Part shown: piece by piece, positions 6,209 through 34,321 of the stretch | Layout: the number at the start of each line of letters is the position of its first letter | Numbering within the stretch: the stretch's first letter is position 1 | IMG/VR virus record: IMGVR_UViG_3300002835_000006 | Length of the DNA: 64,000 nucleotides | DNA from: a virus | Lineage: Duplodnaviria; Caudoviricetes | Reading direction: 5' to 3' (one strand) | The notes under the pieces: generated by a model | The model's database searches: none | What the model was told of the DNA's origin: nothing | Seen by the model: the letters and a program-made list of their open reading frames with translations, nothing else | Made by a program: the position numbers and the translations under genes

Positions 6209-6697
6209 TTAATAAACAAATGATTTTTGGAAATCATTCCAAATTTTGGATAAAGTATGATTTTCATTTACAAGGGTTGGCGCAAATGGTTTTTGTCTCA
6301 TAACCATTCTTGCTTCTTCAGGGGTCTTATCTGCTTTCTTTAGATTACATTTTTGACATGAGGTAACCAAATTGGTCCATTCATTCTTTCCACCTCTTGA
6401 TTTAGGTATCACGTGGTCTAATGTCAAATTTCTCGAAGAACCACAATAAACACATTGATGGTTATCTCTTTTATAAATTCTGTTTCTATTTGCACGTAAA
6501 ACTCTAGTGAAATGTCTTATGTATTTTAATAAACGTATGATTACGGGTCTGACATAAGTTTTGTAGCCTGTCACAATAGGATTATCATCAGATTTTACAA
6601 TCTCAGCTTTACCCTTGTCAACTAAAACAAACCCCCGTTTGACGCTTGTTACATTCAAGGGAGTATAGTCATAATTCAAAACCAAGACGTGGCTCAT
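6209..6697 (-). CDS. HNH endonuclease (McrA/COG1403-like)
   Basis: VLVLNYDYTPL N-terminus; RDNHQCVYCG, TLDHVIPKSRGG, WTNLVTSCQKCNLKK. Likely start is MSHVL at 6697. Confidence 0.92.
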   Translation of the reverse strand: MSHVLVLNYDYTPLNVTSVKRGFVLVDKGKAEIVKSDDNPIVTGYKTYVRPVIIRLLKYIRHFTRVLRANRNRIYKRDNHQCVYCGSSRNLTLDHVIPKSRGGKNEWTNLVTSCQKCNLKKADKTPEEARMVMRQKPFAPTLVNENHTLSKIWNDFQKSFVY

Positions 6698-6740
6698 AAT
6701 AAAAATTTTAAACAAAAATAGTTTATTTTATTAAAAAAAC

Positions 6741-7811: not shown

Positions 7812-7883
7812 GTCTTCTTAGCTCAGTGGTAGAGCATCTCGCTGTTAACGAGAGGGTCCATGGTTCGAGACCATGAGAGGACG
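7812..7883 (+). tRNA. tRNA-Asn(GUU)
   Basis: GTCTTCT/AGAGGAC acceptor, loop CTGTTAA, G73; CCA not encoded. Confidence 0.95.
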
Positions 7884-7898
7884 CAAAGGGGATAAAAC

Positions 7899-7938
7899 GT
7901 GCAGTGGCCTCAGGGGTTCTAGACCCCACTGCACTCCA
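7899..7938 (+). ncRNA. tRNA minihelix-like element (acceptor stem + T-arm + U73-CCA, no D or anticodon arm)
   Basis: GTGCAGT-GGCCTCA-GGGG-TTCTAGA-CCCC-ACTGCAC-T-CCA, directly abutting tRNA-Gly. Confidence 0.6.
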
Positions 7939-8011
7939 GCGGAAGTAGCTCATTCGGTAGAGCACGACCTTGCCAAGGTCGGGGTGGCCAGTTCGAGCCT
8001 GGTCTTCCGCT
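7939..8011 (+). tRNA. tRNA-Gly(GCC)
   Basis: GCGGAAG/CTTCCGC acceptor, loop TTGCCAA, U73. Confidence 0.96.
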
Positions 8012-8017
8012 CAACAA

Positions 8018-9879: not shown

Positions 9880-9919
9880 CACTTGACACTTTCAATATTT
9901 TGAATATATTTATAACTGA

Positions 9920-10006
9920 ATGAAAACAATGAACTTCCATATAGAGTTTAGTAGTCAACAAGAGATTTGTTGGAAAACTCCTATGCGTAGTTCGGTAAAC
10001 ATGTAA
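9920..10006 (+). CDS. putative leader peptide MKTMNFHIEFSSQQEICWKTPMRSSVNM
   Basis: ATG at 9920, TAA at 10004, just after TTGACA (9883 region) and TATTTATA (9907); followed by a terminator. Confidence 0.65.
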   Translation: MKTMNFHIEFSSQQEICWKTPMRSSVNM

Positions 10007-10068
10007 ACTCCTGAAGAGTTATATATACAACCTCGGACTACGTAAGTGGTTCGGGGTTTTTTGTTTTT
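9984..10068 (+). promoter_or_regulatory. attenuator: antiterminator (9984-9995 : 10033-10044) versus terminator (10029-10041 : 10046-10058 + U-tract)
   Basis: 12-bp and 13-bp alternative helices share the segment CUCGGACUAC; TTTTGTTTTT follows the terminator stem. Confidence 0.7.
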
Positions 10069-10078
10069 AGGAAGTTTA

Positions 10079-10110
10079 TTTGGTTCTTTGAAATATTGGT
10101 TGTAAATTTG
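10079..10110 (+). promoter_or_regulatory. Bacteroidota-type promoter TTTG-N20-TAAATTTG upstream of tRNA-Glu
   Basis: Matches the -33/-7 consensus TTTG-N19-21-TAnnTTTG. Confidence 0.55.
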
Positions 10111-10118
10111 TAGTTCTT

Positions 10119-11285: not shown

Positions 11286-11816
11286 ATGAGACGAAAAATC
11301 ATTTTTATTGATGTTGATGGACCCTTGGCTTGGGGAACGTGGGATTTAGGACCTCAAAATTTCAATATCGAATGTGCTAATTCTCGCAAATTCCAAATTC
11401 CTTATCCTTGGGTACGGGAAGATTGTGAGGCATTACAGGAAATTTGTGAGCGAACAAATGCCGATTTAGTCGTCAGTTCAGATTGGAAACAATTCTATTC
11501 TATACGACAACTTAAAGACATTTTTGTCTCATACGGTGTATATGCACCTGTAATCGACCTAACAACTCATCTAAATTTGACTAACAAAATGAGTCCTCAA
11601 CCAGAGAAAGAAAGAGCACTTCAAATTGCTCAATGGGTCAAAGTCAATAAAGTTTCAAATTGGATTGCAATTGACGATATGAATTTATCCAAAGAGTTCA
11701 AATACCTGAAACCAAGAATACCTATGTGGAGACACGTACAGGTCGATGGGGATTGGGGTCACGGTGGCAGACTAAGAGATAAAGTTGAAGAATGTATCAA
11801 AAAGTTGGAAAAATAA
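11286..11816 (+). CDS. HAD-domain protein (RNA-repair 'Swiss Army Knife' HAD-like)
   Basis: IIFIDVDGPL, LVVSSDW, WIAIDD motifs. Confidence 0.8.
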   Translation: MRRKIIFIDVDGPLAWGTWDLGPQNFNIECANSRKFQIPYPWVREDCEALQEICERTNADLVVSSDWKQFYSIRQLKDIFVSYGVYAPVIDLTTHLNLTNKMSPQPEKERALQIAQWVKVNKVSNWIAIDDMNLSKEFKYLKPRIPMWRHVQVDGDWGHGGRLRDKVEECIKKLEK

Positions 11817-12457: not shown

Positions 12458-12462
12458 CACAA

Positions 12463-12588
12463 ATAGGTTGATTGGGGAAGGAATATACGTTAACCTGATG
12501 ATGGAGGTGGTATATTCGGAGTTGGAATCATCATAGTAATGCCAATCGTAAAAGGAGTTGTCCACGCGACCATCTTCTCCTTTCCTAT
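12463..12588 (+). ncRNA. unidentified pseudoknotted structured RNA between tRNA-Trp and tRNA-CAU
   Basis: Five perfect helices, two of them crossing (see findings). Confidence 0.6.
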
Positions 12589-12590
12589 AC

Positions 12591-17140: not shown

Positions 17141-17491
17141 TCATTTCCAAAATAGTTGTATCAAAAGTATAACAAAACTCAGACATAAACAAATTAAAGT
17201 TTTTGTTGTCATAGGTTCTTTTAATATCCACCAAGCCATAACGCTAAAAACTATAACTCCAATTGAAAAACCAATTATTCTGTTGGGCCAAGTTTCTCCA
17301 TTATACAAACTAACCATTTCTCTACTTGCTAAGATAACTAAATAACTAATCGGAATTCCAATTATTGTCATTAAAAATGGATTACGTTTAATCCAATTAT
17401 TCCACAGATGACCTTGCAATTGATAAAAAGTGAAAGCCTGAGAAAACAAATAAACTGAAAGAATAAATACTATTGATAAAACCTTGTTCAT
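17141..17491 (-). CDS. 4-TM small membrane protein (DMT/SMR-like)
   Basis: Four hydrophobic helices; KEPMTTKTLICLCL C-terminus. Confidence 0.65.
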   Translation of the reverse strand: MNKVLSIVFILSVYLFSQAFTFYQLQGHLWNNWIKRNPFLMTIIGIPISYLVILASREMVSLYNGETWPNRIIGFSIGVIVFSVMAWWILKEPMTTKTLICLCLSFVILLIQLFWK

Positions 17492-17994: not shown

Positions 17995-20900
17995 TTATCT
18001 TCCGAAGATATATCTTAAACCGAGTTGACCTTGCCAAACGTCAAATACAGATGTATTCCACTGATAAGTGTCTCTGATGAGACCTACAGTAGTTGTACCA
18101 TTTGCGTTGAGGATTGGTTGAGTTGACAATCTGTAGACAGGTTCACCAGCTGTGTTAGTTGATGAATAGCTAAGGATTGCAGGGTTTGTAGCTCTTTGAG
18201 ATACACCCCAATCGTTGTTTAACATGTTACCAAAGTTCAAGATATCCAATCTGATTTGGAATGTGTTTCTGTGACCTTTGATATCGATGAAGAAATCTTG
18301 TTGAACAGACAAATCAAATCTGTGTAACATTGGAATAGCGAGAGCGTTTCTCTCAGCGTATTGACCTCTTCTTGTAGAAAGATATTTGTCTTGGTCGATG
18401 TAAGCGTCAAAAGCTGCTTGTTGTTGAGCTTCAGTGAAAGTTACACCGCCTGAAGTGAATTGAGCAAATTTGATGTCCGAACCTTTGTTTGGAACAAAGA
18501 TAAGTTCATTGTTATTCACTCTGTCACCGTTTAGGTCACCCGCTACGAAGTAGCTGAATGGGTTACCTTGTTGTCCTACATAACCTAAAGTTACAGTAGT
18601 TGCACCAGCACCTTTCTTAGCACCGTTCTCTAATCTATAACCAAGAAGACCAACAAATCTGTTAGGAATCCAGTTATCAGAGAAAGCTAAAGGAAGGTCG
18701 TTGTTTCCGTTGATTGCTCTTGCTGACTGCCAAGAACCAGAAGCAATTGAACCAGCACTCATGAAGTCTTTAGAAAGTGATGTAGTCCAAGCTGCAGAAC
18801 CCCAAAGACCTTTTTGGATTGGATATTTTAACTCGATAGTTGCTGATGTATTGTAAGCGCCATTTCTGTTTGTTAAAACCGCACCCATAGATACGTTGTC
18901 ATTTACTCTTACGCCAGCATCGTTTCTTGCGAAAACAGGTCTTTTGTCAGGACCTGCGAATACTCCTACAGGAACATCCAAGTTAGCGTTGTAGTAATGA
19001 ACAGCGTTCAAAAATCTATTGTACATAAGTTCCACAGTACCTACAAATCCGAATGGTAACTTCTTGTCTGCAGCAAGGTTAGTTTTCCATACTTGTGGGA
19101 ATTTGTAGTTGGGGTCAGTGAAAGCTAAATCAAAAGTAGAAGGAAGTGTTGGTGTAGAAGGAATGAAGTATTGGTTAGGGTTAGCTGTGAAACCGTAGTT
19201 AGCAGCTGCCGCACCTGATACATCGATAAATCCTGTAAGAACACCATTGTTTCCTACTTGGTTTGAAACGAATACATAAGGAGGTCTACCTGTGAATACA
19301 CCGGAACCACCTCTTACTTGTAAATCATTTTTACCTTTGTGATTATAGTTGAAACCAATTCTTGGTTCGAAGAGAACTTGTGTTTTTGGTAAAACACCTG
19401 TGTTGAATTTCTCACCACCAGCGAAAGTCATTGCAGTTACTGCAGGATTTTCTAATGCCGTGTTTTCGAAACCAATTACAGCCGCTCTCAAACCACCTGT
19501 GATTTTCAAATTAGCGTTGTACTGATACTCATCCTGAACATAGAGGTCAAGACGAGATGTTTTCAAAACTTGCATTGGTTCGATTCCACCAGGTAACGCT
19601 GAGTAACGAAGTTGGAATCTTGCAGGAGCAAGAGTTGAAGGTCTTCCACCGTTTGCTAATGATTGATTAGCTGCGGTGTAGAAATCAGTCAAAGAATTGA
19701 AGATATATACACCGTTTGAAGCGGGGAAGAATAAGTTGTTAGAACGATATTTCTCGAAGTTAACACCAGCCACAATTGTGTGCTTGTCCATAAATTTGGT
19801 CAAGTTGTTAGTGATGTGGAAAGTGTTATAGTCCAACTTGTTACCAGGAGTGAATGGGTCAAATCCTACAGAAGCGTAGGTTGCGGTACCATTCATGATA
19901 TCAATAGTTGGAAACATCTGTGAAAGATATCCTCTATTTTCAATCTGCTTGTCATAACCAACAATTAGGTTGTTGTGTAAGGTATTAGAAAATTTGCTGT
20001 TGAGTTCTAATACTGAAGAACGTGTGTTATCTTGAATGATGTATCCACTGTTCTTAAAACTCATTGCGTTGAACTGAGTAGTTCTGTTTCCTGCACCTGC
20101 AGATTGAGAGTTTGAAATGTTTATCTCAGCTTCTGAATTGTGCCAAACATAACGAGCAGTCAATTTGTGCTTGTCGTTGATGTTCCAGTCCATTCTCACC
20201 AAGAATTTCTCAGAAGTGTTTGAGTTGTTGTACCCTTCCCAAGGACCCGTCTCATAATTGAAATTTGTTCTCATGAAATCAGAAAGAGTTTTCATATCTG
20301 AATACAGAACTCTTGAGATTTGAGAACCAGCTAAAGGTGAACCTTGTGAAATCCAAGTCGTACCAGGTTCAGTTTTTGTAAGGTTTTCGTAGTTACCAAA
20401 AATGAATAATTTGTTTTTGATAATTGGAGCACCTAATCTGAAACCTCTTGTAGTTTCTTCGAATTTCGAAGCGGTTACAGTAGTTCCTTTAGCGTTGTTA
20501 CCAACATAACGTTGGTTGTCTCTGTTAAACTGATAATAAGAACCCTCTACTTTGTTGGAACCACTTCTTGTAACAGCGTTGATTCCAGCACCAACGAAAC
20601 CACTTTGACGAATGTCAAATGGAGCTACGTTGATTTGTAGTTGGTCAATCGCATCCAAAGAGATTGCAGTTGAACCAGTTCTACCACCAGCCTGAGCTGA
20701 AGAACCAAGACCGAAACCGTTGTTAAACTGAGAACCGTCAATTGTGAAGTTGTTCAATCTGCTATCAGCAGCTCCGAAAGAACGACCGTCACCCATTGGG
20801 TTGTACTTGGTGATTCCGTCAATAGTTCTTGCACCAGTAATGGGAACAGAAGTTAGTTCTCTCCTTCCAAATTGCTGAGACGCACCGGTTCTACCTGAGC

Positions 20901-21282
20901 TGAAAATGTTGTTTTTGTTTGAATTTACAACTACTTCAGTAAGGGTTTTAACTTCATTGACCAACACAATTTCCAAGGTAGTTGAAATACCAAGATTTGT
21001 ATTGATGTCTGTAAGCTCCTTCATTTTGTAACCCACATTAGAAACGTGAATTACATAAGGACCACCAGGACGCACAGCAGGAATGTTGAAAATACCAACT
21101 TTGTTTGTGATTGCACGATACTCAGAACCCGTAGGTTGGTGAACAGCATGAACCGACGCTCCCGCTAAAGCATCTCCTTTTTCATTTTTCACTACACCAG
21201 ACAGGGCAGAAGTTGTAATTTGCCCGAAAGATGCGAGAGTCACGAACAAGGATAAAAGTGACATCATGATTTGCTTTTTCAT
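17995..21282 (-). CDS. TonB-dependent outer-membrane receptor (Oar-like, N-terminal carboxypeptidase-regulatory-like domain)
   Basis: Signal peptide; GVVKNEKG..L.GA.V; plug motif GFVGAGINAVTRSGSN; EPRIGFNY; C-terminal GQLGLRYIF. Start MKKQ at 21282. Confidence 0.93.
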   Translation of the reverse strand: MKKQIMMSLLSLFVTLASFGQITTSALSGVVKNEKGDALAGASVHAVHQPTGSEYRAITNKVGIFNIPAVRPGGPYVIHVSNVGYKMKELTDINTNLGISTTLEIVLVNEVKTLTEVVVNSNKNNIFSSGRTGASQQFGRRELTSVPITGARTIDGITKYNPMGDGRSFGAADSRLNNFTIDGSQFNNGFGLGSSAQAGGRTGSTAISLDAIDQLQINVAPFDIRQSGFVGAGINAVTRSGSNKVEGSYYQFNRDNQRYVGNNAKGTTVTASKFEETTRGFRLGAPIIKNKLFIFGNYENLTKTEPGTTWISQGSPLAGSQISRVLYSDMKTLSDFMRTNFNYETGPWEGYNNSNTSEKFLVRMDWNINDKHKLTARYVWHNSEAEINISNSQSAGAGNRTTQFNAMSFKNSGYIIQDNTRSSVLELNSKFSNTLHNNLIVGYDKQIENRGYLSQMFPTIDIMNGTATYASVGFDPFTPGNKLDYNTFHITNNLTKFMDKHTIVAGVNFEKYRSNNLFFPASNGVYIFNSLTDFYTAANQSLANGGRPSTLAPARFQLRYSALPGGIEPMQVLKTSRLDLYVQDEYQYNANLKITGGLRAAVIGFENTALENPAVTAMTFAGGEKFNTGVLPKTQVLFEPRIGFNYNHKGKNDLQVRGGSGVFTGRPPYVFVSNQVGNNGVLTGFIDVSGAAAANYGFTANPNQYFIPSTPTLPSTFDLAFTDPNYKFPQVWKTNLAADKKLPFGFVGTVELMYNRFLNAVHYYNANLDVPVGVFAGPDKRPVFARNDAGVRVNDNVSMGAVLTNRNGAYNTSATIELKYPIQKGLWGSAAWTTSLSKDFMSAGSIASGSWQSARAINGNNDLPLAFSDNWIPNRFVGLLGYRLENGAKKGAGATTVTLGYVGQQGNPFSYFVAGDLNGDRVNNNELIFVPNKGSDIKFAQFTSGGVTFTEAQQQAAFDAYIDQDKYLSTRRGQYAERNALAIPMLHRFDLSVQQDFFIDIKGHRNTFQIRLDILNFGNMLNNDWGVSQRATNPAILSYSSTNTAGEPVYRLSTQPILNANGTTTVGLIRDTYQWNTSVFDVWQGQLGLRYIFGR

Positions 21283-21519
21283 GTTTGTTTTGTTTATTGG
21301 TTTATAAATAAAAAATCCCGAAGACATGCGCCAACGGGATTATTGTATTTTCAAAATTGTTAAAATAGTTCAGTCGATAAAAACTCATAAAATTTCTCCA
21401 CCCTTTCATAACTACCCTGTCGAAAACAAAAATCCCAATCGACAACACAAAGTTAATAATTTTTTAATTGAGAATCAATAGGCGAAAAAAAACCCCCGAT
21501 TTCTCGGGGGGTCTCTTGG

Positions 21520-22604: not shown

Positions 22605-23261
22605 CTATTTTAATTTTGTTATTCCATATACCCAATTTAGGGGTAGAGGTTCTGTTTTTTTGATTTTTTTATTTTCATAACCATTTGTAATCCATTTTGT
22701 ACCAAATTGTGAATTTTTATTCCCTTTTTGGCTTATTGAATTTTTTTCACCTATTTTTTTCTTTGTTTCTTCGTTATGTTTTTTTCCGAGCCAGGAGTAA
22801 GAGTCTTGTATTGATTTTAATTTTCCATTTTTATGATTTTTTTCATTTGACGCAATACGGGATAGTGAAATTTTTTTTCTATAATTTGGGTCGGATTTCA
22901 ACATTTCTCTATGTTTTATACCCGCGGCTTTAGAACACTTGTATTGGTGAGTTGGATTATTAAACCCGCCAGTACCACCAGGTTTCAAATTATAACAATT
23001 CGGGTCATTTAGAAAATTCTCGTTTATAATTTCCTTTTCTCTTTTTATCAACTCTTCTCTATTGATACACCATTCGAGAATTTCGAATTTGAAATTATTC
23101 GGACCGTATTTTCTTATTGCAAATCTTAAATTAGTTCCACTCCCTATGTAACCATCGTTCAGGTTTGTTGTTGAATGCATTCCAACGTAAAATTTATTAT
23201 TGAGGAGGTTTGTTGTCTTGTATATAAAATGATATTTTTTTGACTTATTTGAGTTCGACAT
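22605..23261 (-). CDS. free-standing GIY-YIG homing endonuclease (Seg-like, NUMOD3 repeats)
   Basis: FIYKTTN...FYVGMH...YIGSG...R...KYG..NF..EIL; GKKHNEETKKKI. Confidence 0.9.
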   Translation of the reverse strand: MSNSNKSKKYHFIYKTTNLLNNKFYVGMHSTTNLNDGYIGSGTNLRFAIRKYGPNNFKFEILEWCINREELIKREKEIINENFLNDPNCYNLKPGGTGGFNNPTHQYKCSKAAGIKHREMLKSDPNYRKKISLSRIASNEKNHKNGKLKSIQDSYSWLGKKHNEETKKKIGEKNSISQKGNKNSQFGTKWITNGYENKKIKKTEPLPLNWVYGITKLK

Positions 23262-23296: not shown

Positions 23297-23688
23297 GGTG
23301 GAGAAGACGGGAGTCGAACCCGTGTCTTGTTCGCGATAACTATAAGTGACTACACGTTTATTACAACATTGTTTCTCAATGTTCCGAAATATTAGGTTTG
23401 ATATATGTGAGAAACCTACCTACAAACAACTTGGTCTCAGAATTATTTTAAACGAGCTCTGACCTGTGACCCGTATAATGGACTTCTGTTCCTAGGTTAT
23501 ATGTCCTAACCGACCCGACGTTGTCAAAACTATCAAGCTTTAACAACAGCTTCCTCAGCGATAAGACCGAGAGCAGCCATTTTAGCAAAAGTATTGCCAG
23601 TTGTGTTTTAAATCAGTTTTTAAGGAGGTAATTTAGCTCCTACGTGCCACCTATACCTATACACGCCAATCGATGCCATTTCTTCCCC
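23297..23688 (-). ncRNA. ssrA: tmRNA
   Basis: 5' GGGGAAG pairs with 3' CTTCTCC-A-CC, giving G3-U70; T-arm CGGG-TTCGACT-CCCG; tag ORF 23598-23533 after ACAACT. Confidence 0.95.
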
Positions 23689-23754
23689 GTAATTTCAAAT
23701 AACTTTTACAAATATAAGAATAAATATTTTAATTCCAAACCTGTATTTATCAAT

Positions 23755-33923: not shown

Positions 33924-34321
33924 GTAAATTGGTTTTCGTAAATGGTTTAGGACCCAATTATAAAGGGGATAACATTTACGAATTCATATTTTCGGACGAA
34001 AATTTGGAAGACGTTTGGGGAGAAAATTGGGAATCAAAACCAAGTAATGGTTATCCATTACCTCCCGAGTTGAAATATATAAAAAAGGTAGGAGTTTTGA
34101 GAAATACTGATGTTAAATTGGAATTGATTCAGAACTCCGATTTTTTTTGTATGATAGATGCCTTGGATGATGTAGTTGCGATGGCATGGGAACCTGAGGA
34201 AGTAAGAGGTCAGAAGAGAATGGTGTTCAGGTTTGGAGAGTCAGAGCAAGTTATAAAAGATAAATTATACGAAAGAGATTTGATTCTCGAATTTGAAAAG
34301 AAAGTTGTATATGAAAATTAA
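33920..34321 (+). CDS. hypothetical protein
   Basis: ATGA-coupled to the upstream gene. Confidence 0.75.
   Translation: MSKLVFVNGLGPNYKGDNIYEFIFSDENLEDVWGENWESKPSNGYPLPPELKYIKKVGVLRNTDVKLELIQNSDFFCMIDALDDVVAMAWEPEEVRGQKRMVFRFGESEQVIKDKLYERDLILEFEKKVVYEN

Follow-up and report, generated by a model that had tools for sequence, protein, structure and literature searches.

What is a short RNA without an anticodon arm doing among the transfer RNA (tRNA) genes of a phage? The question is raised by a stretch of 64,000 nucleotides (IMG/VR virus record IMGVR_UViG_3300002835_000006; Duplodnaviria, Caudoviricetes), which was analyzed whole and is here called the window. Within its tRNA cluster, positions 7899-7938 read GTGCAGT-GGCCTCA-GGGG-TTCTAGA-CCCC-ACTGCAC-T-CCA. 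A preliminary description made from the sequence alone had taken these 40 nt for a tRNA minihelix rather than debris, with a 7-nt linker replacing the D and anticodon arms, a T-arm and an intact CCA end. Reading of the sequence bore out the coordinates, the perfect 7-bp stem, the hairpin GGGG-TTCTAGA-CCCC, the T and the CCA, and ARAGORN placed the first base of tRNA-Gly at the next position, as had been stated. Folded alone, the 40-mer was modestly better than its shuffles (z = -2.2, with 5 of 200 shuffles as good). ARAGORN did not call it a tRNA, and a search of Rfam 15 at expect values (E) of up to 10, with the window and four other members of the family described below, found nothing over the element, RF00005 included. 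Since the fold score was modest and no Rfam family matched, the lone sequence could not separate chance, debris and a gene from one another. Comparison with relatives shows that the 40-mer is the core of a conserved unit of about 56 nt (7885-7938) that includes a leader pseudoknot, that this unit is a selected RNA, and that it behaves as an accessory gene.

Compensatory changes support three helices

We collected 85 loci through two flanking protein genes and read every spacer between their tRNAs. Many of these relatives carried, just upstream of tRNA-Gly, a spacer of 54-60 nt with the same architecture, preceded immediately in most of them by an intact tRNA-Asp. Pattern scans of IMG/VR and of public metagenomes yielded 83 distinct variants in 176 loci, on contigs of uncultured phages and of metagenomes, nearly all from freshwater. 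A structure including the pseudoknot was then scored by pair counts on an alignment of 43 sequences (alignment A1). In this alignment 99.9% of the cells paired and 10 of the 18 pairs changed on both sides, a result reached by none of 500 shuffles; in controls with slid partner strands, at most 3 pairs had changes on both sides. The preliminary description had named compensatory changes in related phages as evidence to look for, and they support three helices: a 7-bp stem (stem 1), a 4-bp hairpin stem and a 4-bp pseudoknot. The view that the element is not debris is thereby upheld. A recent deletion, with a full-length tRNA in its place in relatives, is excluded by the coexistence of the element with a full tRNA-Asp upstream, and derivation from a decayed tRNA-Asp was rejected because 34 variants have an intact tRNA-Asp directly before the element.

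Stem 1 was perfect in all 83 variants and varied at two pairs, position 3 (GC or AU) and position 4 (CG, UA or UG), while three of the four hairpin pairs changed on both sides. The third helix is new and had been missed in the preliminary description, which regarded the 7 nt between stem and hairpin as a mere linker. The CCNC core of this linker pairs with a GNGG motif in the leader, 8 nt upstream of the stem. The central pair of this pseudoknot took all four Watson-Crick forms in A1 (CG 17, UA 17, AU 4, GC 4, besides one GU), and leader and linker were complementary in 82 of the 83 variants. Because the search pattern behind A1 left the leader and the two variable bases of the linker core unconstrained, the covariation does not stem from the way in which the sequences had been gathered. 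In all three helices together we counted 24 G.U cells against a single A.C cell, and the selected molecule is therefore the RNA of the tRNA strand.

From 5' to 3' the unit in the window consists of AAA, GGGG, ATAAAAC, the 5' strand of stem 1, GG, CCTC, A, the hairpin, the 3' strand of stem 1 and TCCA (Table 1). The predicted fold resembles the top half of a tRNA without its anticodon arm, locked by the leader pseudoknot. As in a tRNA, or in a minihelix of acceptor and TpsiC arms, the 7-bp stem opens with G1:C72 and its 3' strand is joined directly to a hairpin with a 7-nt loop; two nucleotides follow the 5' strand in the manner of positions 8-9, a 4-bp helix occupies the place of the D-stem, U73-C74 stand unpaired after the stem, and the setting is a tRNA array with tRNA-like flanks. 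In contrast to a tRNA, the element has no D-loop, anticodon arm or variable region, and its D-stem-like helix draws one strand from the 5' leader, which amounts to a permuted arrangement. As for the proposed T-arm, a hairpin with the TTCTAGA loop is indeed present in the window, but its stem has 4 bp where a T-stem has 5, and the T-loop consensus (T54-psi55-C56...A58) is absent from 82 of the 83 variants, the TTCNA look-alike being confined to the window copy.

Three other readings of the conserved segments were tried and rejected. Leader (GNGGA) and 3' tail (TCCAC) could pair over at least 5 bp in only 17 of the 83 variants, and such a helix showed no covariation, TCCA tails not being enriched with a matching leader. 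Pairing of the A-rich connector (L1) with the loop is possible only in the minority with a UAUA-type connector and is not conserved. Finally, a Shine-Dalgarno reading of AAAGNGG failed, as any of the four nucleotides can stand at its variable position, which pairs with the linker.

The ends of the element resemble those of the phage tRNAs

The T that follows stem 1, equivalent to N73 of a tRNA, was invariant, and a scan of IMG/VR for any other base at this position gave no match. The C equivalent to C74 was present in 80 of the 83 variants, position -1 was always a pyrimidine (C in 43, T in 40), and positions -2 and -4 were A in every variant. These constraints agree with the tRNA-like, acceptor-like end proposed earlier, the constancy of U73 having come from an unconstrained test. 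G1:C72 was also found in every variant; however, both search patterns fixed this pair, and its constancy is not independent evidence. The tails were TCTT (26 variants), TCCA (17), TCTA (12), TCAT (10) and others. The CCA end is thus encoded in the window copy, as described, but in only 17 of 83 variants, and is not a trait of the family. The earlier view of a selected, anticodon-less, tRNA-like RNA stands on these comparisons, while the passive linker, the T-arm and the intact CCA are given up as its defining features.

The tRNAs of the window ended similarly. Thirteen of its 15 tRNAs terminate in N73-C-A(A/C), for example at 7884, 8012 and 8091, and only tRNA-Pro and tRNA-Arg encode CCA, in agreement with the remark that most neighboring tRNAs lack it; A-Y occupies positions -2/-1 in 8 of the 15. 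The element shares the end signature of the phage's own tRNAs, and therefore the same enzymes may process it and its CCA may be completed after transcription. As a separate observation, the N73-C-A ends hint that this phage and its host use a particular route of 3' processing or CCA repair.

The position of the element between tRNAs was equally regular. Among the 51 variants with a detected upstream tRNA, the leader began 0 nt after that tRNA in 42. A downstream tRNA began 2-9 nt past the T in 67 of the 83 variants, and at 2-7 nt in 66 of these 67; it was tRNA-Gly in 47, the rest having a tRNA for Met, Cys, Glu, Thr, Leu, Arg, Ser or Gln at this place. In other copies no tRNA stands upstream. 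Some copies (L186, L190, L249 and L110) lie 3-4 nt after a Bacteroidota-type -7 box, and since these promoter-proximal copies keep the full leader, the leader and its pseudoknot probably belong to the gene. One copy (L103) stands between two small open reading frames (ORFs) of the same strand, that of the 462-kb phage LR756500 (L260) follows a gene and has no tRNA nearby, and T-runs follow some copies. In one sub-lineage (L233, L100, L098 and L111) the element is directly preceded by a conserved, GC-rich RNA of about 90 nt ending in GGGGATATAACGGGAC; it is apparently structured, although ARAGORN made no tRNA call for it and no Rfam family reached the gathering score.

The hairpin loop carries a palindrome

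The last six bases of the 7-nt loop formed a perfect palindrome in 82 of the 83 variants. Nine of the ten distinct hexamers were palindromic (GATATC, GGTACC, CCTAGG, GCTAGC, GCATGC, CTTAAG, TCTAGA, GACGTC and CTGCAG), all three palindrome pairs changed on both sides, and the central dinucleotide was TA, AT, CG or GC, that is, any of the four self-complementary ones. The first loop base, which is unpaired, was kept in 82 of the 83 (T in 52 variants, A in 26, C in 4). Because the adjacent central bases of the hexamer cannot pair with each other within one hairpin, pairing between two molecules best explains the palindrome. Most likely, the hexamer pairs with the same loop of a second molecule to give a kissing-loop homodimer.

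Palindromic loops of 6 nt are known to drive such homodimers in the dimerization initiation site (DIS) of human immunodeficiency virus 1 (HIV-1) and in the 3' untranslated region of oskar (PMC7357161). The element hairpin shares with these the six self-complementary nucleotides and the unpaired flanking base, and, as in other kissing-loop dimerization hairpins, the palindrome is retained while its sequence changes. The known examples, however, belong to long viral or messenger RNAs and serve packaging or localization, whereas the palindrome studied here, whose dimer is predicted from the variants, caps a tRNA-like RNA of about 56 nt in a DNA phage.

The element behaves as a single-copy accessory RNA gene

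The exact 40-mer had no match in IMG/VR. The search pattern for the family had a single match in 185,579 genomes of prokaryote species, on a 6-kb contig of a metagenome-assembled genome, and a bacterial origin was rejected on this result. Among 50,697 phage records none shared the element region beyond its tRNAs; the element by itself matched only LR756500, a record of an uncultured phage, and showed no sequence similarity to any cultured phage.

We built a covariance model from 43 members and applied it to 341 kb of relatives whose selection had not depended on the element. The scores were bimodal, true copies reaching 64-79 bits and nothing falling between 16 and 64 bits. The window holds one copy, at 71.8 bits against 13 bits for the next match with filters off; weak matches at 33958 and 44964 were leader-like A/G-rich strings without stems. 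Exactly one copy was found in three of five long records (complete ones of 317 kb and 274 kb, and one of 195 kb estimated to be 65% complete) and none in the remaining two, which are complete records of 326 kb and of 321 kb, the latter with terminal repeats. In the relative closest by its flanking genes the tRNA order is Pro-Asn-Thr, with neither the element nor tRNA-Gly. Since some genomes have one copy and complete relatives have none, the element behaves as an accessory RNA gene and not as a general punctuation signal or a spreading repeat. In relatives without the element (L039-L047, L056 and L008), tRNA-Asp and tRNA-Gly are separated either by another structured RNA, 104-118 nt long, or by only 5 nt, and this slot seems to be an exchange site for RNA cassettes.

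A candidate trans-acting mimic of the tRNA top half

The account that we favor, at a probability of roughly 0.55, is that the single-copy accessory gene encodes a mimic of the tRNA top half that is excised by the tRNA-processing machinery, forms a dimer and acts in trans. To what the comparisons establish (the helices, the strand, the distribution and the copy number) this account adds a processing route, a dimer and a role in trans, each suggested by features of the sequences. The RNA would be transcribed together with the tRNA array, from the same strand as the tRNAs. Its 7-bp acceptor-like stem would stack on the 4-bp hairpin, and the GNGG/CCNC pseudoknot would lock the junction from the place of the D-stem. 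The 5' end would be generated by 3' processing of the upstream tRNA or, in promoter-proximal copies, by the start of transcription, and the 3' end by RNase P cutting at the 5' end of the downstream tRNA. A second RNase P cut might fall at the conserved A-Y/G junction that precedes the stem, and the CCA-adding enzyme could complete U73-C74 to CCA. Two molecules would then join through their loop hexamers. In the last and least certain step, the RNA would probably occupy a processing enzyme, a synthetase, a host defense enzyme or some other factor that recognizes the acceptor arm of tRNAs. The T-loop look and the encoded CCA of the window copy are coincidental under this account.

Several points weigh against it. 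If RNase P cut at the Y/G junction, it would sever the pseudoknot strand, and the mature RNA might be of about 40 nt instead of about 56 nt. With a 4-bp hairpin stem and no T-loop consensus, the element may not be accepted by enzymes that read the tRNA elbow. The dimer is deduced from sequence. Both search patterns fixed most of stem 1, the near-invariance of which is partly a matter of construction; as a counterpoint, the covariance model found no variants of intermediate score in the 341 kb of relatives. Finally, the copies followed by T-runs and those between protein genes would also fit a cis-acting role.

Such a cis role, in which the element serves as a t-element-like signal for processing, boundary formation or stability and the excised piece is itself functionless, appears to us unlikely. 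The tRNA-like stub would mark a cut by RNase P or RNase Z, or the structure would act as a protective or terminator hairpin. The element does abut tRNA ends on both sides, its -1, -2 and N73-C74 signature fits recognition by tRNA-processing enzymes, the copies of L103 and L260 sit beside protein genes, and the T-runs resemble intrinsic terminators. It also has counterparts in the t-elements of plant mitochondria and in mascRNA-type signals, which are likewise partial tRNA mimics in longer transcripts, end at would-be RNase P and RNase Z sites and are matched by the copies between protein genes. However, a general device should recur, whereas the element occurs once per genome of 270-320 kb and is missing from two complete relatives. 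Within tRNA arrays it would be redundant, as neighboring tRNAs only 3-6 nt apart are processed without it, and a signal of this type would leave the covarying palindromic loop and the pseudoknot unexplained. The single copy, the extra leader pseudoknot and the self-complementary loop are also what separates the element from t-elements, and its processing is deduced from position.

A bolder version of the favored account can be offered only tentatively, and we rate it as rather improbable. In it, the element would represent a new class of trans-acting RNA, a head-to-head homodimer of tRNA-top-half mimics, each bearing U73-CCA after completion. Such a dimer might be a bivalent decoy or inhibitor of a host enzyme that acts on acceptor ends, for instance a defense toxin that modifies or cleaves CCA, or the processing machinery; alternatively, the novelty might lie in a new small ribozyme.

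It is in our judgement quite doubtful that the element represents a small ribozyme of a new class, which by cleaving itself would trim either its own leader or the upstream tRNA at the 3' end. The idea draws on the theta ribozymes, which are of the hepatitis delta virus (HDV) type, begin at the 3' ends of phage tRNAs and trim the upstream tRNA (Kienbeck et al. 2024, PMC10879173). Like them, the element is a small pseudoknotted RNA in the range of about 50-60 nt (here about 55 nt) that starts exactly at phage tRNA 3' ends, and it has invariant unpaired adenines, namely the AAA before the pseudoknot, those at -2 and -4 and the one before the hairpin. Its helix order (leader strand, stem 5' strand, pseudoknot partner, hairpin, stem 3' strand), however, cannot be mapped on the HDV/theta order P1-P2-P3-P1'-P4-P2'. 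P3/L3, expected between P2 and P1', would have only 2 nt to occupy, and with the 3' strands of hairpin and stem joined end to end there is no room for the unpaired catalytic cytosine at the first position of J4/2 (PMC10879173). The theta ribozymes, moreover, are mostly from gut phages, unlike the freshwater family described here.

The helix order comes closer to that of a pistol ribozyme minus P1: pseudoknot strand, A-rich linker, stem 5' strand, pseudoknot partner, hairpin, stem 3' strand. In pistol, the loop of the P1 hairpin forms the pseudoknot, and an internal loop between P3 and P2 carries the G-U cleavage site. The element, in contrast, has no P1 stem upstream of GNGG, and its contiguous hairpin and stem strands leave neither unpaired bases nor an internal loop for such a site. 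No ribozyme family of Rfam 15, pistol included, matched the window or the four other members at E up to 10, and the theta/HDV-like, pistol and hammerhead folds were all rejected because of the helix order and the lack of core elements. The copies that have no tRNA upstream also speak against a ribozyme, which would leave the palindromic loop unexplained.

Equally doubtful is the narrower proposal closest to the preliminary description, in which RNase P removes the leader and the mature product is a 40-nt, CCA-ended RNA that is charged with Gly or Cys by virtue of U73 or serves as an acceptor-end decoy. Minihelices can be charged. U73 is invariant, G1:C72 is present throughout (though fixed by the patterns), the A-Y/G junction is like the 5' ends of the window tRNAs, and the conserved C74 means that CCA could be completed after transcription. 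The downstream tRNA, moreover, is tRNA-Gly in 47 of 67 variants and shares U73, G1:C72 and G3:C70 with the element. This link to tRNA-Gly, however, may be inherited gene order, and the second pair of the element is U2:A71, whereas C2:G71 belongs to bacterial tRNA-Gly identity. The rarity of the encoded CCA (17 of 83) and of the T-loop (1 of 83) speaks against a mature minihelix of this kind, and so does the leader pseudoknot, whose covariation and retention in promoter-proximal copies indicate selection.

That the element is a neutral relic, such as a decayed tRNA, or matters only as DNA, as a quasi-palindrome kept by template-switch repair or an inverted repeat bound by a protein, is extremely improbable and already largely refuted: although hairpin and loop form a near-perfect DNA palindrome and homing-endonuclease genes flank the RNA island, the excess of G.U over A.C cells marks selection on one RNA strand, the pseudoknot covaries without being a hairpin-type inverted repeat, template switching would remove the unpaired first loop base that 82 of 83 variants keep, and a sequence-specific protein site would not vary among nine palindromes.

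The closest parallels in spirit are species 1 and 2 of phage T4 (rnaC/rnaD) and the stable RNAs of T5, structured non-tRNAs that lie in tRNA clusters, are co-processed with the tRNAs and had no explained function for decades. The element is likewise a structured non-tRNA inside the tRNA cluster of a T4-type phage, though the T4 and T5 RNAs are two to three times longer.

The locus and its phage

Genes for a T4-type portal, major capsid protein and large terminase lie in the window, which is a piece of a large T4-like freshwater phage; relatives in IMG/VR measure 270-326 kb. According to ARAGORN, 14 tRNAs on one strand form an island at 7.7-13.2 kb, within which the element lies, and the opposite strand carries one tRNA-Arg and a transfer-messenger RNA (tmRNA). 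The host is probably a member of the Bacteroidota. The motif TTTG-N17-23-TAnnTTTG, which we take to be the Bacteroidota-type promoter consensus (TTTG, 17-23 nt, TAnnTTTG), is enriched: the window has 16 sites where 6.2 are expected, a count that none of 100 shuffles reached, and sites lie directly upstream of tRNA-Glu, tRNA-Arg and the tmRNA. The window also holds an ORF of 1110 amino acids with a CarboxypepD_reg domain and an outer-membrane beta-barrel (PF25183, a match at the 1e-47 level). Its product is a SusC/TonB-dependent-receptor-like protein, which is unusual in a phage and points to a host among the Bacteroidota.

Several further genes accompany the RNA island. The tmRNA encodes the tag GNTFAKMAALGLIAEEAVVKA, and several relatives, for example L251 and L145, also have a tmRNA beside their tRNA arrays. 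Homing-endonuclease-like genes, one of the HNH and one of the GIY-YIG type, stand on either side of the island, and between tRNAs lies a gene for a HAD domain of the 'Swiss Army Knife' RNA-repair type.

Table 1. Parts of the element and other features of the window, with their positions.
Feature	Position	Strand	Remarks
Opening AAA	7885..7887	+	A6 and A7 invariant, A5 at least 90% in alignment A1; leader unconstrained by its search pattern
Pseudoknot 5' strand, GGGG	7888..7891	+	Family consensus GNGG; pairs with 7908-7911, with one G.U in the window copy
A-rich connector L1, ATAAAAC	7892..7898	+	Position -1 pyrimidine; -2 and -4 are A
Stem 1 5' strand, GTGCAGT	7899..7905	+	Acceptor-like, begins with G1; pairs with 7928-7934
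2-nt connector, GG	7906..7907	+	AA or AG in 80/83 variants; place of tRNA positions 8-9
Pseudoknot 3' strand, CCTC	7908..7911	+	Family consensus CCNC; lies where a D-stem strand would sit
Single A	7912	+	Joins pseudoknot strand to hairpin; in every variant, but fixed as part of 'CAG' in both search patterns, so not independent evidence
Hairpin	7913..7927	+	4-bp GGGG/CCCC with 7-nt loop TTCTAGA; loop bases 7918-7923 (TCTAGA) palindromic
Stem 1 3' strand, ACTGCAC	7928..7934	+	Contiguous with hairpin 3' strand, giving an 11-bp coaxial stack
Tail, TCCA	7935..7938	+	T equivalent to N73, C to C74; the following CA not conserved
tRNA-Asn(GTT)	7812..7884	+	ARAGORN; Rfam tRNA score 65.8 bits; ends G73-C74 without encoded CCA
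tRNA-Gly(GCC)	7939..8012	+	ARAGORN; first base directly after the element
HNH gene, homing-endonuclease-like	6209..6715	-	
Leu-Glu spacer	9881..10118		
Promoter-motif example	10079..10110	+	Motif scan
HAD-domain gene	11286..11816		Between tRNAs
Trp-Met spacer	12459..12590		
Promoter-motif example	17162..17193	-	Motif scan
1110-aa ORF	17995..21327	-	SusC/TonB-dependent-receptor-like
GIY-YIG gene, homing-endonuclease-like	22605..23261	-	
tmRNA	23297..23688	-	
Promoter-motif example	23709..23739	-	Motif scan

Further probably structured spacers

Other spacers between tRNAs of these phages also appear structured. A second family, of 47-55 nt, arranges its helices in the same way (strand A, strand B, A', hairpin, B') and includes L005:2631-2677, L011 (Gly-Thr), L078 (Cys-Lys) and L059 (Asp-Thr). 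One example is GGGTT-GTGGG-AACCC-hairpin-CCCAC; the hairpin loop of this family is a conserved GATGA, which is not palindromic. A third type, in L072 (Asn-Gly) and L053 (Gly-Thr), starts with AAAGGG and ends with TCCAT or TCATT. Within the window, the Trp-Met and Leu-Glu spacers are probably further unannotated structured RNAs: both are conserved in relatives, with 55 and 77 BLAST matches, respectively, at 86-98% identity among the top matches listed, and their predicted folds are extended (-30.6 and -59.2 kcal/mol), while no Rfam family reaches threshold.

Implications

Phage tRNA clusters are now viewed as counter-measures against host defenses that target tRNAs. The RNAs among phage tRNAs that are not themselves tRNAs have been unexplained since the "stable RNAs" of T4 and T5, and the element adds to them a small family defined by covariation. 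Two of its features are unusual, the D-stem-like pseudoknot with a strand supplied by the leader and the loop selected for self-complementarity; to our knowledge, few natural RNAs are under selection for homodimer formation. The family would offer a compact model for how phages use the tRNA-processing machinery for other RNAs, and for the role that an anticodon-less mimic of the acceptor arm may play during infection.

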